The position numbers and the translations under genes were made by a program. This document shows, in pieces, positions 1 to 3,990 of a stretch of DNA of 64,000 bases. Below the pieces are notes generated by a model that made no database searches, was not told where the DNA came from, and saw only the letters and a list, made by a program, of their open reading frames with translations. The stretch's first letter is position 1, and the number at the start of each line of letters is the position of its first letter. The DNA is taken from positions 128,001 to 192,000 of the forward strand of contig CAWDRG010000011.1 of the NCBI GenBank assembly GCA_963804645.1, given 5' to 3'. Source of the DNA: an uncultured Bacillota bacterium. Its GTDB lineage: Bacteria; Sysuimicrobiota; Sysuimicrobiia; Sysuimicrobiales; Segetimicrobiaceae.

Positions 1-430
1 ACAGACCGCGGTCCGCCGGCCGCCAGTCCTCGACCAAGAGGTGCAGGACCTCATTCGCTCGCAGGCCGCTGTCGGCGAGCACGAGTAACAGGGTGCGGTT
101 GCGCGCACCCTCCAGCGTCTCCGGGCAAACGGCGAGCACGGTCCGCAGCTCGTCTTCGGTGGGAACGTCCGGCAGCGTCTTCGGGGTGCGCATCGTAAAC
201 CCACGCAGCGGTGTCTCAGCAAGGGCGCCCGTCTCGACACACCAGCGAAAGAACGTCTTGAGCGTGCGATACGCTTGGTGCTGGTGAGACGCGCTGCGCT
301 GCTGCAGGCCCACGAAGAACGTGCGCAACCCAAGCGGCGTCACCTCGGGGACCTCGGCCGTGAGGCGCCTAACCCACCATCCGTAAATCCGCATCGTCGC
401 GGCCGTGCAGCCAGCGACACGCTTGGTCAC
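1..430 (-). CDS. Tyrosine recombinase/integrase (XerC/D-like), 5' part; runs off the left window edge; start uncertain (first in-frame GTG at 430, frame open to ~570)
   Basis: Manual minus-strand translation (not in ORF track): ...LADAAEAFLVTKRVAGCTAATMRIY...YRTLKTFFRWCVETG...PKTLPDVPTEDEL...RNRTLLLVLADSGLRANEVLHL. This gives a SAM-like N-domain plus the box I GLRxxE catalytic Arg motif, positioned downstream of a tRNA 3' end. Confidence 0.85.
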   Translation of the reverse strand, partial: MTKRVAGCTAATMRIYGWWVRRLTAEVPEVTPLGLRTFFVGLQQRSASHQHQAYRTLKTFFRWCVETGALAETPLRGFTMRTPKTLPDVPTEDELRTVLAVCPETLEGARNRTLLLVLADSGLRANEVLHLLVEDWRPADRGL

Positions 431-541
431 TAGGAACGCCTCCGCAGCGTCCGCGAGCGGGTGAGCATTGGCTTTTCGGCGGGTTCCAACGAGGTCGAAG
501 CGTCGGAAACGCTTGCTACACGCCCCGTCCTCCAGCCTGAG

Positions 542-1352
542 GTCGGGTAGCAGGGTGGCGCGCCGGTCAGGTTACCGTTAAGGAGCCTGACCACGGTTCC
601 ACCCCGCCCCCTATCAACCGGATAGCGGGTTTTCCCCAATCCGGCTGGAAGAGCACGCGCTCAGTTGCAGCGTTCCCGATCCTTCCCAGCCTGTACCTGG
701 GGAGCGATTGGTTTGCTGCAGCCTACAGCGTCGGTCCGGATCTTGGCGGTAGCCCGAGCGCGTTATCAGCACCCGCACCCTCTCCTTCTCCAACGCTGGC
801 CTGCTCCCAGAGGCCCTTTGCTCCCGCTCCTTGTTATCGGAGCGATCATCGCTCCTACGGCCTCATGCGCCAGACTCTCCCCCACCAGTGAACTTCCCGA
901 GTGAAGTCGGTTATATCACTGGCCTCACGGGTGAGAGCCCTTCCCCGCTTTGACCATCCACCCTTTGGATGTTGCCGCCACCCCTACGCCGGAGGGCTGG
1001 TTGCGTGCACACGCCCAGCTTCTTCCGCAACCACACTGGCCTTCGTCCCCTATGTAGAAACTTGGCACCCTCATTCCCACTGTGGCGCTGAGCACTCCGT
1101 TACCGGAGCTCTGAGTGGGCCTGAATAACGACGCTGCAGTGTTCACTTCATGTTGCGGCCCCATCCATCGCTCGTCTCCTGGGCCACCGACCTCGGCCTT
1201 TATATCTCTGCCGGGCCGCCGAGACTTGTACGTCCGGGCTTCCGTCTCGCGAGTCACCTCCTTCGAGACGCCGGACAACACTACCGCGGCAAGTTGGGCG
1301 ACTCCGCGGGTCGGACTCTCACCGACTGAGTGTATGGCTTTACGGGCTGCAC
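542..1352 (-). ncRNA. Group II intron RNA without an intron-encoded protein (~811 nt; resembles bacterial class E/F introns)
   Basis: 5' end GTGCAGCCCG. Domain V at 646-616 (AGCCGGAT-TGGGGAAAACCCGCT-ATCCGGTT) with the AGC triad. Domain VI GCGGGGTGG/CCACCCTGC with a bulged A at 548, 7 nt from the 3' end ...TACCCGAC. Domain III-like GGCCGTAGGAGCGATGATCG...GCAAAGGGCC. EBS1 ACATAGG (1055-1049) pairs with the 5' exon end CCTATGT. Short domain IV with no RT ORF. Confidence 0.88.
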
Positions 1353-1416
1353 ACATAGGTAACAGGTTGTACCGGACACATGGGTAACACTTCCTCCCCT
1401 AAAGGGGGGGACGCGG

Positions 1417-2368
1417 ATGCCCTGGAGGGAGTGTTCGGTGATGGACGAACGAATGCAGTTTGTCGCGCGGCGACTCGCCGGTGAGTCGATGGCGGAACTG
1501 TGCCGAGAGTTTGGGATTTCCCGCAAGACCGGTTACAAGCTCTTCGATCGGTATCAGGAATGCGGCATCCACGGGCTCACGGACCGCAGCCGGCGTCCGT
1601 ATCGCTACGCCAACCAACTGCCCGTTCAAGTCGAGAACTACATCCTCACTGTGAAGCGCGAACACGCCAGCTGGGGGGCGCGGAAGATCCGCGAGCGCTT
1701 GACGCGCCGGTTCGCAGGGATTCCCATCCCCGCGAAGAGCACGATCCATGCGGTGCTGGATCGCCACGGCCTGGTGGAGCGTCGGCCTCCCGGCCAACAT
1801 CCGCAGCGACAACGGCGTCCCGTTCGCGTCCGCGCACGCCCTCTTCAACTTGAGCCGACTGGCGGTCTGGTGGGTACGCCTCGGCATTGGCATCGAACGC
1901 ATCCAGCCCGGCCATCCCCAGCAGAACGGCCGTCATGAACGGATGCACCTCACGTTGAAGAAAGAAGCCACCAAGCCCGCCGCGGCCAATCTCCTGCAGC
2001 AGCAGGCCCGGTTTGACAAATTTATCGACACCTTCAACAACGAACGCCCGCACGAAGCCCTGGACATGCAGTGTCCGGCGCAAGTCTACCGCCCTTCCCC
2101 ACGTCCCTACACGGGCTTGCCGGAGATCGATTATCCGCTCCACGACAAGACCGTCGTGGTCACGCAGTGCGGTCGCATCTGTCTAGGCAACCATAAGATC
2201 AACTTCAGCCAAGTCTTCGCGGGACAAGCCGTCGGCATCAAAGAAGTGTATGATGACATCTGGCTGGTCAGCTTTATGGATGATGACTTGGGGTACTTTG
2301 ATCTGGAGACACGAGTGCTCGAACCGCTCGAAAATCCGTTCGGCCCGAAAGTGTTACCCATGTCTTAG
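1417..2368 (+). pseudogene. IS481-family transposase, internally deleted and frameshifted near 1780
   Basis: The N-terminal HTH part (MPWRECSVMDERMQFVARR...FGISRKTGYK...WGARKI...RHGLVERR) joins out of frame to the C-terminal core (GLPANIRSDNG...PQQNGRHERMHLTLK...FNNERPHEAL). The segment that should carry the first catalytic Asp is missing. Confidence 0.88.
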
Positions 2369-2371
2369 GTA

Positions 2372-3863
2372 CAGCGCCACTAAGATAATTTGACATGGAC
2401 GTCGAATAGGCCCCTCGCACGGGTTCGATCGCAGCCATCGTCGCAGCAACAATCGCAGCAGCGAGGTGAGCTTCCATGGCCGCAGCGTCCGCCACGCCGC
2501 CCGCCGTGCCCTCGGTCAATCTGGCTCAAATCATCAAGCTCCTGCACACGCATCTCACGGCAGCCTTATGTAACACGGTGTTCCAGCGGGTCCGGAATCG
2601 GGAACGCCAACGCCGCTGGTCTTTGGCCGCCCTGGCTCAGTTTTGGCTCACCGTGCTCCTCACGGGCCCCCGTTCGCTGACCCAGGCGTTGCGAGAAACG
2701 GGCATCATGTTCCCCCACCTGGGGCCGGCGGCGCGCACCTCTCCGGAGGCCTTTTTCCAACGCGCCGAGCGGCTGCGGCCCGACTTCTTCCGCGTCCTTT
2801 ACGACGAGTATGTCGCGCACCTGGTGCCGGAGGCCCGCACGACCTACGCCGCCGCCGTGGCGGGGGTGCGCGAGCGCTTCTCCGAGGTCTGGATCCTGGA
2901 CGGCACGCGCCTGGATGCGGTGGCCCATCGGCTCAAGCTCACCTGGGATGTCCGCTCGCCGTTGTTGCCGGGGTGCCTGCTGGTGTGCTACGACCTGTTC
3001 CGCGGCTTCCCCCGGCGCCTCTCGTTCTGCGCCGATGCCGGCCGGAGCGAACTGCAACACGCGCTCGAGCAGCTCCCCACCATTCCCCAAGAGACGCTGC
3101 TCATTGCGGATCGACTGTTTGCCTCGGTCAAGCTGGTGGCGGCACTCACGCACGGGAAGGGATGGCTCCTCTGCCGCCGGAATCGTCGGCTCACCCTGCG
3201 CCATCAGCGCTGGCTGCGCCGCGGCCAGTTCAAGGGCGGCACGCTGATGGAGCGCCTCGTCCTCGTCGGGTCGGGGCAAGGCACCCCGCCCCAGCTGATG
3301 CGGCAGATCCGCTATACCCAACATCGACTGACCATTGATCTCTTGACGTCGGTGCTGGACCCTCGGCGCCTCCCCGCAAAAGACGCGCTGGCATGTTACC
3401 GATTGCGCTGGCAAGTGGAACGGCTGTTTTCGGATCTCAAGGGCGTGCTGGATCTCCATCACTTCTACCTCGCCAGCCCGCGCGGGGTGGCCCAACAAGT
3501 CTATGTCGCGGCCATGGTGTATGCCGCGATGCGCGTGGCGCAAGCCCGCATTGCCGGGGAGCATGACCTGACGCCGGAGGAGTTGTCGCCCACCAAGCTC
3601 TTCCCGCGCCTTGCCCGGGCCTCGCTCACCTTCGTGCTCGGGGACCTGCATTTTGAGGCGACGCAACAGGTGAATCCCCGCGTGCGTTTAATCAAGCCGG
3701 ATTGGTCGGAGCTCCCTCCCATGCAGGTCGCGCTGCCGGATCTCCTCGTCGAACCTCGTCGCGGCAAACGCCGCAAGCGTCGGTTCTGCGCGAGCCGGCA
3801 CCGGTGGAAATCGTTCGCGCATGTGCGCGGCGCACGTAAGTTCGAATTATGTTAGCGGCGATG
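2372..3863 (+). mobile_element. IS4-family insertion sequence, 1492 bp, apparently intact
   Basis: TIRs CAGCGCCACTAAGATAATTTGA (2372-2393) and reverse-complement CATCGCCGCTAACATAATTCGA (3863-3842), 18/22 match. Perfect 11-bp flanking direct repeat TGTCTTAGGTA at 2361-2371 and 3864-3874. Confidence 0.93.
2476..3855 (+). CDS. IS4-family DDE transposase
   Basis: WILDGT, LIADR and YRLRWQVERLFSDLK (Y-x2-R-x3-E-x6-K 'YREK' signature). The stop codon lies inside the right TIR. Confidence 0.92.
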   Translation: MAAASATPPAVPSVNLAQIIKLLHTHLTAALCNTVFQRVRNRERQRRWSLAALAQFWLTVLLTGPRSLTQALRETGIMFPHLGPAARTSPEAFFQRAERLRPDFFRVLYDEYVAHLVPEARTTYAAAVAGVRERFSEVWILDGTRLDAVAHRLKLTWDVRSPLLPGCLLVCYDLFRGFPRRLSFCADAGRSELQHALEQLPTIPQETLLIADRLFASVKLVAALTHGKGWLLCRRNRRLTLRHQRWLRRGQFKGGTLMERLVLVGSGQGTPPQLMRQIRYTQHRLTIDLLTSVLDPRRLPAKDALACYRLRWQVERLFSDLKGVLDLHHFYLASPRGVAQQVYVAAMVYAAMRVAQARIAGEHDLTPEELSPTKLFPRLARASLTFVLGDLHFEATQQVNPRVRLIKPDWSELPPMQVALPDLLVEPRRGKRRKRRFCASRHRWKSFAHVRGARKFELC

Positions 3864-3914
3864 TGTCTTAGGTACGAACTGTCACCTATGTCTCCGGGTT
3901 GGACCCGTAAGGAC

Positions 3915-3990
3915 TGGCGCGCCCGGAAGGATTTGAACCTCCGACCCGCTGCTTCGAAGGCAGCTGCTCTATCCCCTGAGCTACGGGCGC
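3915..3990 (-). tRNA. tRNA-Arg (anticodon TCG), CCA encoded
   Basis: GCGCCCGTAGCTCAGGGGATAGAGCAGCTGC-CTTCGAA-GCAGCGGGTCGGAGGTTCAAATCCTTCCGGGCGCGCCA: 76-nt cloverleaf with anticodon loop CT-TCG-AA and T loop GTTCAAATC. Confidence 0.96.

Follow-up and report, generated by a model that had tools for sequence, protein, structure and literature searches.

Results

The stretch of DNA analysed here (64,000 nt, positions 128,001 to 192,000 of contig CAWDRG010000011.1 in assembly GCA_963804645.1 of an uncultured Bacillota bacterium; referred to below as the window) carries at 542-1352, on the minus strand, a group II intron without an open reading frame (ORF), which is inserted in the terminal inverted repeat of an insertion sequence (IS) of the IS481 type. 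The anatomy of the ribozyme, its exact boundaries, its copy number, the target common to the copies, the empty targets, the covariation of three guide pairings, and the independence of the intron from the IS were established directly. With good confidence, we read the element as an ORF-less intron that is guided to IS ends by base pairing and is supplied in trans with the protein that it does not encode.

Fold and boundaries of the intron

As shown in Table 1, a part of domain I (D1) matches the Rfam model RF02003, and this was the sole non-tRNA match to Rfam within the window. When the full-length alignment of 13 diverged lineages of the intron was folded using RNAalifold, a six-domain wheel was obtained with 215 pairs, 111 of which were compensated, where the alignment columns were 7-418 for D1, 419-494 for D2, 496-555 for D3, 556-743 for D4, 746-779 for D5, and 783-850 for D6. 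D4 is only about 185 nt long. No ORF for a reverse transcriptase (RT) is present in the intron, the longest ORF on its strand being one of 143 aa that overlaps D1, and a search for an RT remnant using blastx against the 11 RT ORFs of the genome gave only noise (best E 2.9). Because D4 is small and neither an RT ORF nor a remnant of one was found, the element at 542-1352 is a group II intron that is complete but has no ORF, in agreement with the original prediction, which had been made from the sequence of the window. Its architecture is of the IIB type.

That prediction had also described a D5 with an AGC triad, a D6 with a branch-point A at −7, and the terminus CCCGAC, all of which are present where it had placed them. 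D5, read from 647 to 615 on the minus strand, consists of a lower helix of 9 bp, which includes the AGC triad and a G-U pair, and an upper helix of 4 bp, closed by a loop of 5 nt and not by a GNRA tetraloop. Counted from the 3′ end of the intron, whose last three bases are GAC, the bulged A (window position 548) comes seventh. In the alignment of the 13 lineages, the D5/D6 pairing is kept in 96.8% of the cells, and compensatory change was found in 10 pairs, compared to 0-1 when the 3′ partners were slid by 1-3 columns; none of 500 shuffles reached this level of covariation. Within the D5 helix itself, 4 of the 13 pairs show compensatory change. This covariation shows D5/D6 to be real, though non-canonical.

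As had been proposed, removal of 542-1352 yields GAG-ACATAGG (the hyphen marks the junction), which is the same as the right repeat at 3880-3894 and as the empty left ends found in sister genomes (13/13). An alternative 5′ boundary at 1354, which would give the canonical GUGUG, was also considered; it is ruled out by all copies, the right repeat, and the 13 empty sites, which lead to GAG-ACATAGG.

Guide pairings with the exons

The loop originally proposed as exon-binding site 1 (EBS1), ACATAGG at 1055-1049, is correct in its coordinates and complements the corresponding intron-binding site in the exon (IBS1), CCTATGT at 1359-1353, at 7/7 positions. In all five near-identical genomic copies of the intron, the 5′ exon ends in ...ACCTATGT and the 3′ exon starts with CTCAGG. 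A more distant copy in the same genome, on contig C4 and with 75% identity, has the 5′ exon ACTCTAA, and the sequence at its EBS1 alignment columns is TTAGAGT.

The pairings were counted in the 13 lineages, from which the near-duplicates L081, L079, L048, L052, and L057 had been excluded beforehand. With G-U pairs allowed, EBS1 and IBS1 match at 7/7 in 12 lineages and at 6/7 in the remaining one, compared to a mean of 3.05/7 at the same columns for mismatched combinations of intron and exon, of which 6/156 reach 6. The EBS2 loop (around intron positions 225-235) forms helices with exon positions −8 to −18 whose mean length is 5.9 bp when intron and exon come from the same lineage and 3.9 bp when they are crossed; helices of at least 5 bp were obtained in 9/13 and 43/156, respectively. 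In 13/13 lineages, the base in the EBS3 column is the complement of exon position +1, with which the 3′ exon begins, and no other intron column attains at least 12/13. In the window copy, the base 5′ of EBS1 (T) is unable to pair with exon +1 (C). Because the EBS3 column is complementary throughout the lineages, exon recognition is of the IIB type, where EBS3 lies in D1, and not of the kind with a delta base beside EBS1.

The target in the IS481-type element

The genome comprises 5.3 Mb in 22 contigs and is 96.8% complete. It contains five intron copies of 811 nt, which are 99.6-100% identical (0-3 substitutions apart), in addition to the C4 copy of 796 nt and a fragment of 240 nt. When the sites of the other copies were tabulated, as the original prediction had suggested, all five near-identical copies proved to lie in IS481-type elements, each within the left inverted repeat, and L081, a copy from a metagenome, occupies the same position. 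These six occurrences, together with the profile matches of the transposase, support the claim that the intron is targeted to a terminal repeat of IS481-type elements, and the insertion point lies 13 nt inside the left one.

The right tip of the IS is at 3905, and its left tip lies 13 bp outside the intron. The inverted repeats are imperfect and about 50 bp long, and target duplications of 3 bp were found in 3/3 complete copies, which are near-identical to one another and have the duplications CGT, TGA, and ATC. In the window, the IS copy has an internal deletion of 222 bp near 1780; one copy on contig C19 keeps an intact transposase, yet it also bears the intron. The Pfam domains of the transposase are HTH_32, HTH_28, and LZ_Tnp_IS481 in the N-terminal part, where LZ_Tnp_IS481 scores 31.4 against a cut-off of 22.2, and rve_3 in the C-terminal part. 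The best NCBIfam match of the intact 393-aa protein is IS481 (NF033577), which covers the full profile with E 3.3e-64 and 217.1 bits, a score under the cut-off of 224.

Relatives of the IS that are 86-93% identical occur in other, intron-free genomes of the same family. Their left ends are empty in 13/13 cases from nine sister genomes, with the junction GAG-A(C/G)ATAGG, where CCTGAG, CCCGAG, or CTGTGAG is directly followed by A(C/G)ATAGGTAACAG; IBS1 is the same as that in the window in 6 of these 13 ends. A metagenome DNA run (X1) holds both the occupied form and an empty end, the latter as a loose end abutting 1353. The empty-end junction that had been predicted is thus borne out in both kinds of material.

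Choice of the left repeat

All five intron-bearing sites are left ends, and no empty left end was found when the genome was searched for IS ends. The unoccupied CCTATGT reported earlier at 3885-3891 is present in the right repeat of the window copy. Right ends with identical IBS1 and IBS3 and with 3/4 of IBS2 are empty in 3/3 cases, and a fourth right end has a mismatched IBS1. Because these three sites are empty in spite of their identical IBS1 and IBS3, RNA pairing alone is insufficient to explain the site choice.

Of 6 copies, 5 have the sense strand of the intron on the G-rich strand and 1 is ambiguous; one copy is located at a skew switch. This placement fits insertion into the template of the lagging strand, and the right-repeat sites in these IS copies would then fall on the strand that is not favoured, but the sample is too small to decide. 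The left repeat could accordingly be chosen through a replication-strand bias of an RT without an endonuclease and not by sequence discrimination, a refinement of the preferred reading to which we give somewhat less than an even chance. The near-identity of the right-repeat site, the strand distribution, and the lack of endonuclease domains in the RTs resident in the genome agree with such a bias, and in the paper on RmInt2 the two repeats of an IS are described as sites on opposite replication strands (PMC4615759). The informative IS copies, however, number only 3-4, the GC skew is weak (mean absolute value of 0.034 per 50 kb), and the left and right repeats also differ at −9, −14, −16, and +4, where an RT could discriminate between them.

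Movement of the intron independently of the IS

The occupied elements belong to two subfamilies, IS-A, with the copy in the window and two on C19, and IS-B, with the copy at C11:12445 and a stub on C15. Their bodies are 91% identical, and their outer tips are different. The presence of near-identical introns in both of these diverged subfamilies shows that it was the intron itself that moved. The intron variants A160C and T736A are each common to one IS-A copy and one IS-B copy. The intron moved independently of the IS, and pure hitch-hiking is hard to reconcile with these data.

If the copies were passengers only, a single insertion into one IS481-type element would have given rise to the others when the IS transposed or was duplicated along with its intron, the intron itself being no longer mobile. 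We consider this improbable. The three IS-A copies do look as such passengers would, because they are 99.4-100% identical, each has its own 3-bp duplication around the IS and the intron, and the divergence of the intron is similar to that of the IS; for these three copies alone, hitch-hiking and repeated homing are indistinguishable, and they may have carried the intron by transposition. A cognate RT was not found in the genome, and a review describes introns without an intron-encoded protein (IEP) as generally lacking retromobility (PMC4424553). However, passengers would not be at least 99.6% identical within IS copies that are 91% identical and have unlike tips, nor would A160C and T736A cross the subfamilies. 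The outer 13 bp of the repeat are set 811 bp apart from the rest, which should hinder the transposase, and the 13 lineages, each with its own matched EBS and IBS, require repeated insertion with retargeting.

An ORF-less family with a non-canonical core

Relatives were collected by scanning metagenome contigs for a 3′-end motif, which gave 112 stretches, and one genome-contig record was added, giving 113 loci; this record, on a contig of genome G011, was the only one obtained in a two-block motif scan of genome contigs. Similarity to the intron was found at 42 of the 113 loci, and 16 of them hold full-length relatives that are 68-99% identical to it. All 16 are ORF-less. The 13 lineages that were measured are 793-829 nt long and 68-82% identical among each other. 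Full-length copies are present in 2 of the 94 species genomes of the class, namely the genome of the window (G000) and G011, and three matches of 25 nt in the class genomes were regarded as noise. An isolated 3′-end remnant of 53 nt with 94% identity (L044, G006:C46:11639-11691) lies behind an unrelated gene in another genus of the family.

The targets of the relatives are mostly mobile DNA, including RT genes of other introns and an end beside an IS256/Mutator transposase (L101). The C4 copy lies about 165 nt behind an IS110-type transposase, and some relatives, such as L070 and L046, are in ordinary intergenic DNA. At locus L129, copies are arranged head to tail, with the 3′ end of one abutting the 5′ end of the next, and L142 and L158 contain duplicated D5-D6 pieces.

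Across the family, D5 has a loop of 5 nt, and the AGC triad is replaced by AAC in 9 of the 13 lineages (Table 1). The strand opposite AAC has a C, which gives an A-C pair (L110), an A (L106), or an extra GA; the middle pair of the triad is standard in only 3/13 lineages, and the G-U pair is kept in 3/13. The 5′ end is GUGCA in eight lineages and UUGCA in five, where the latter (L070, L056/L052, L114, L101, and L046 = G011:C144) have UUGCAG...CCCGGU instead of GUGCAG...CCCGAC. The first and penultimate bases of the intron change together, and EBS1 and IBS1 stay matched in the UUGCAG lineages. Because each lineage has its own matched EBS and IBS, the core variants were already there while the introns were inserting.

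Candidate helper reverse transcriptases

The genome contains 11 intact ORFs for group II RT/maturases with a GIIM domain, which fall into five families of 419, 442, 460, 446, and 406 aa. Representatives of all five families have RVT_1 and GIIM and no HNH or other endonuclease domain at E<=0.01, and both RTs that were scanned against NCBIfam passed TIGR04416. The introns encoding the resident RTs are all of the D1D4-4 type, and those of the 442, 446, and 460 types have an unusually long insertion in D6, whose base is similar to that of the ORF-less intron. On these sequence features, the 442, 446, and 460 introns are assigned to the same structural class as the ORF-less intron. The insertion in the 446, 460, and 442 introns is about 130 nt long and has a base, GGAAACGTG ... 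CGGCGCGC, that is similar to the one in the 40-nt hairpin of the ORF-less family; the insertion may be a signature of the class or a protein-binding site.

Matches to RTs were found at 8 of the 113 scanned loci, and at none of the eight does the RT precede the 3′ motif, which would be the place of an ORF encoded within the intron. At seven of them, as confirmed using Pfam, the ORF-less intron lies inside the RT ORF (L106, L057, L090, and L156) or 80-190 nt upstream of it (L110, L126, and L122). The RTs at these seven loci are 74-93% identical to the 442-aa or 406-aa type of the genome, and these two types are therefore nominated as helpers on circumstantial grounds. It is plausible that the intron is non-autonomous and borrows its RT in trans.

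At two places in the genome (G000 C5:193000-197000 and C15:384000-389000, L017-L022), a 406-aa-type RT ORF stops in the maturase domain (GIIM 3-38 of 80) exactly where an intron of the 460-aa type begins. The arrangement, which occurs twice in the same genome, looks like nesting of a 460-aa-type intron within the RT gene of a second intron.

Proposed mechanism and its assessment

In the proposed mechanism, base pairing of EBS1 with IBS1 (7 bp), of EBS2 with IBS2 (4 bp), and of EBS3 with IBS3 (1 bp) would direct reverse splicing of the intron into its site in the left repeat of the IS, 13 nt from the tip. Because the intron encodes no protein, reverse transcription would have to be supplied in trans, as would probably the assistance in folding. 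The likely source is one of the endonuclease-less RT/maturases that other group II introns of this structural class encode in the same cell, and such proteins would be expected to prime the synthesis of cDNA at replication forks. Splicing of the RNA, the choice of the helping RT, the coupling of insertion to replication, and any effect on the IS are what we infer from the sequences.

Besides the empty right-repeat sites and the ambiguity of the three IS-A copies, several results weigh against this reading. The 5′ end GUGCA departs from the GUGYG consensus. Of the Rfam models with which the original prediction was to be checked, RF02003 scored above its gathering score for D1, and RF00029, the model of D5/D6, gave no match on 300-1600 at E<=10, with hits listed to 13 bits. 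The covariance-model match expected at 542-650, whose lack the original prediction had named as grounds for refutation, is thus formally missing for RF00029, and D5/D6 is nonetheless backed by covariation; genome-wide, RF00029 has five matches, none of which is at any intron copy. An RT-encoding relative, also anticipated, was not found: a search of the genome (blastn, word size 9, E<=1) returned only ORF-less relatives and no ORF-bearing sibling, and none was obtained in the 94 genomes of the class or among the 113 loci. When D4 was compared with the flanks of five RT ORFs by local alignment, the best z was about 3 in 10 comparisons, and none stood out. With an assembly that is 96.8% complete, a cognate RT intron could be missing from it, and the identity of the helper RT is a guess.

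The RNA data also weigh on this side. A part of the stretch is present in six RNA runs, in three of which (X15-X17) metatranscriptome contigs cover 806-1365, 736-1336, and 634-1398 and cross the 5′ junction unspliced. The joint of 541 to 1353 of this IS variant is in none of these contigs, for which contaminating DNA is possible; being assembled, they are evidence neither for transcription nor against it. Some loose ends in X17, where a GAG-type tip is connected with ACATAGG, were considered as proof of splicing and rejected, since they belong to other IS variants (4 differences per 40 nt) and are thus empty sites or other copies. A scan of 400-2000 for sigma-70-like promoters gave 0 sites.

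It is very improbable that the element is now an inactive, decaying remnant of an extinct RT-encoding intron, a structured repeat that can no longer splice, even in view of the missing ORF, the missing RF00029 match, the GUGCA end, the AAC triads of nine lineages, a disturbed base of D5 in the C4 and G011 copies, and a spliced junction not seen in the metatranscriptome contigs, because the window copy has a canonical AGC with its G-U pair, an intact bulge, and the branch-point A, the D5/D6 cells remain paired across the lineages to the extent given above, the five copies are at most three substitutions apart, and the odd features of D5 are kept across separately retargeted lineages, which makes them compatible with reverse splicing.

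Other features of the locus

An IS4-family element with a 459-aa DDE transposase (NF033592, 128.6 bits, cut-off 115) lies at about 2373-3863 in the right repeat of the IS481-type element, with a duplication of about 12 bp, and other IS481 copies bear different insertions 42-89 bp from the left end. The ends of IS481 copies are apparently insertion hot spots used by several mobile elements. The right tip of the IS481-type element is separated by 12 bp from the end of a tRNA gene (3918-3990, minus strand, 68.2 bits, anticodon loop UCG). The N-terminal part of a tyrosine recombinase at 2-430 (minus strand), with weak matches to Phage_int_SAM_4 and Phage_integrase below the cut-off, starts on the strand of the intron, 112 bp downstream of it, and extends beyond the edge of the window. 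As this fragment is found at the window copy only, it is probably a coincidental neighbour.

Table 1. Positions of the intron, its guide sequences, the host IS, and related features. Positions are those of the window unless a contig or locus is given.
Feature	Position	Strand	Basis or remark
ORF-less group II intron, 811 nt, 5′ GUGCAG...CCCGAC 3′	542..1352	-	five same-length copies; fold with covariation; no RT remnant
Part of domain I matching Rfam RF02003 (group-II-D1D4-4)	1148..1328	-	58.4 bits, gathering score 49, E 2.9e-10
Domain V, 33 nt	615..647	-	AGC triad, 2-nt bulge CU, 5-nt loop; read from sequence
Domain VI with inserted hairpin of ~40 nt and bulged branch A at 548	545..611	-	covarying helices (98.8% and 97.7% of cells paired)
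EBS1 ACATAGG, terminal loop of domain I	1049..1055	-	complements IBS1 at 7/7
EBS2 CAGG, just 4 bp in the window copy	1120..1123	-	loop covaries with 5′ exon
EBS3 G	984 (intron position 369)	-	partner is the first base of the 3′ exon
5′ exon target in left repeat of IS: IBS1 CCTATGT (1359-1353), IBS2 CCTG (1366-1363)	1353..1366	-	
Outer 13 bp of left inverted repeat of IS, split off by the intron	529..541	+	base 541 is IBS3; flanks of three IS copies diverge here
3-bp target duplication CGT of the window copy	526-528 and 3906-3908		
Body of IS481-type element, degraded copy	1353..3905	+	compared with intact copy C19:54674-55959
Unoccupied look-alike site in right repeat	3885..3892	+	IBS1 and IBS3 identical, IBS2 3/4
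Domain V variants	window 615-647; L006, L046, L052/L056, L070, L100, L101, L106, L110, L122		alignment
Domain VI insertions of RT-encoding introns (G000)	C10:188320-188650, C15:192800-193130, C15:388145-388475, C20:3020-3350		

Discussion

The most interesting part of these results is not the IS target but the evidence for a long-lived, retargeting lineage without its own RT and with a non-canonical core. The family may be an old and purely non-autonomous lineage, comparable to short interspersed nuclear elements ('SINE-like'), which has persisted for a long time and changed targets without an RT of its own, living on the RTs of distantly related introns, specialised on IS termini and RT genes, and tolerating a core with a 5-nt D5 loop, an AAC triad, and a U as the first nucleotide that covaries with the penultimate base. 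We regard the chances for and against this wider reading as evenly balanced.

If it is true, bacterial ORF-less introns have been under-counted, as surveys based on RTs and on RF00029 miss them, and the published view of such introns as rare, immobile, and short-lived derivatives needs revising. If the introns are active, they would be a natural system for studying how a ribozyme recruits a non-cognate RT/maturase, they would show how far the catalytic triad and the first nucleotide can vary, and they would let one ask whether an intron 13 bp inside an IS end silences the IS. In the paper on the Thermosynechococcus introns, the recruitment of a non-cognate RT is seen as a step on the way to a common splicing apparatus (PMC2882425). 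For the host genome, the intron would be an ordinary selfish element in non-coding DNA.

No ORF-less intron in an IS481 end and no diverged, all-ORF-less bacterial lineage was reported in the literature that was searched, and supplements or other papers may hold one. In Methanosarcina, ORF-less and RT-encoding introns are reportedly nested, with the ORF-less ones homing into other group II introns (Dai and Zimmerly 2003). Those introns are archaeal; the likeness lies in the family members located in or near RT ORFs, and the copy in the window targets an IS end instead.

The closest precedent for the target is RmInt2 of Sinorhizobium meliloti GR4, all copies of which are in the inverted repeats of ISRm17, and its authors argue that this raises the chance of survival (PMC4615759). 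The original prediction was correct in seeing the repeat of an IS as a multicopy landing site, although the paper on RmInt2 shows that the idea was already in print (PMC4615759). Both systems use IS inverted repeats as a multicopy non-coding target under the guidance of EBS1, EBS2, and EBS3, and the RT of RmInt2 has no endonuclease domain, as is likewise the case for the candidate RTs resident in the present genome (PMC4615759). In contrast, RmInt2 encodes its own RT and both repeats are putative sites for it, whereas the intron described here has no ORF, is found in the left repeat only, and resides in another IS family and another host (PMC4615759).

The ORF-less TeI3 introns of Thermosynechococcus elongatus are mobilised by 'driver' IEPs (PMC2882425). 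They resemble the present introns in that the ORF-less copies have proliferated to well-paired EBS/IBS sites, have diverged targets, and are in some cases nested at or in RT ORFs (PMC2882425). The supply of an RT in trans is published for TeI3 (PMC2882425), while for the intron in the window it would be expected from its lack of an ORF. TeI3 keeps remnants of the ORF and has its ORF-bearing near kin TeI4 in the same genome (PMC2882425), neither of which was found by sequence similarity for the intron in the window; the divergence in the present family is also far deeper (68-82% identity among the lineages) and is spread over many metagenomes.

A review names C.te.I1 of Clostridium tetani as the 'sole known' bacterial intron that is both ORF-less and independent (PMC4424553). 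As with C.te.I1, the present intron is an ORF-less bacterial intron without close IEP-bearing kin; however, C.te.I1 is a single-copy intron in a gene, in a genome without an IEP, whereas here the intron is multicopy, resides in mobile DNA, and shares the genome with 11 RT ORFs (PMC4424553). According to the same review, bacterial ORF-less introns are rare, occur with related ORF-bearing introns, and are short-lived; non-mobile derivatives do not persist, and further ORF-less introns would be hidden only if their domain V were atypical (PMC4424553). The ORF-less family fits this caveat exactly. The pipeline of a large survey was anchored on RF00029 (PMC8919778), and since the domain V of the family escapes this model, surveys anchored on it miss the family.

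Homing to IS repeats is therefore already known from RmInt2 (PMC4615759), as is the mobilisation of ORF-less introns in trans from Thermosynechococcus (PMC2882425). What is new is a family of introns that is ORF-less throughout and changes its targets, with a non-canonical domain V invisible to RF00029 and a subclade with the 5′ end UUGCAG.

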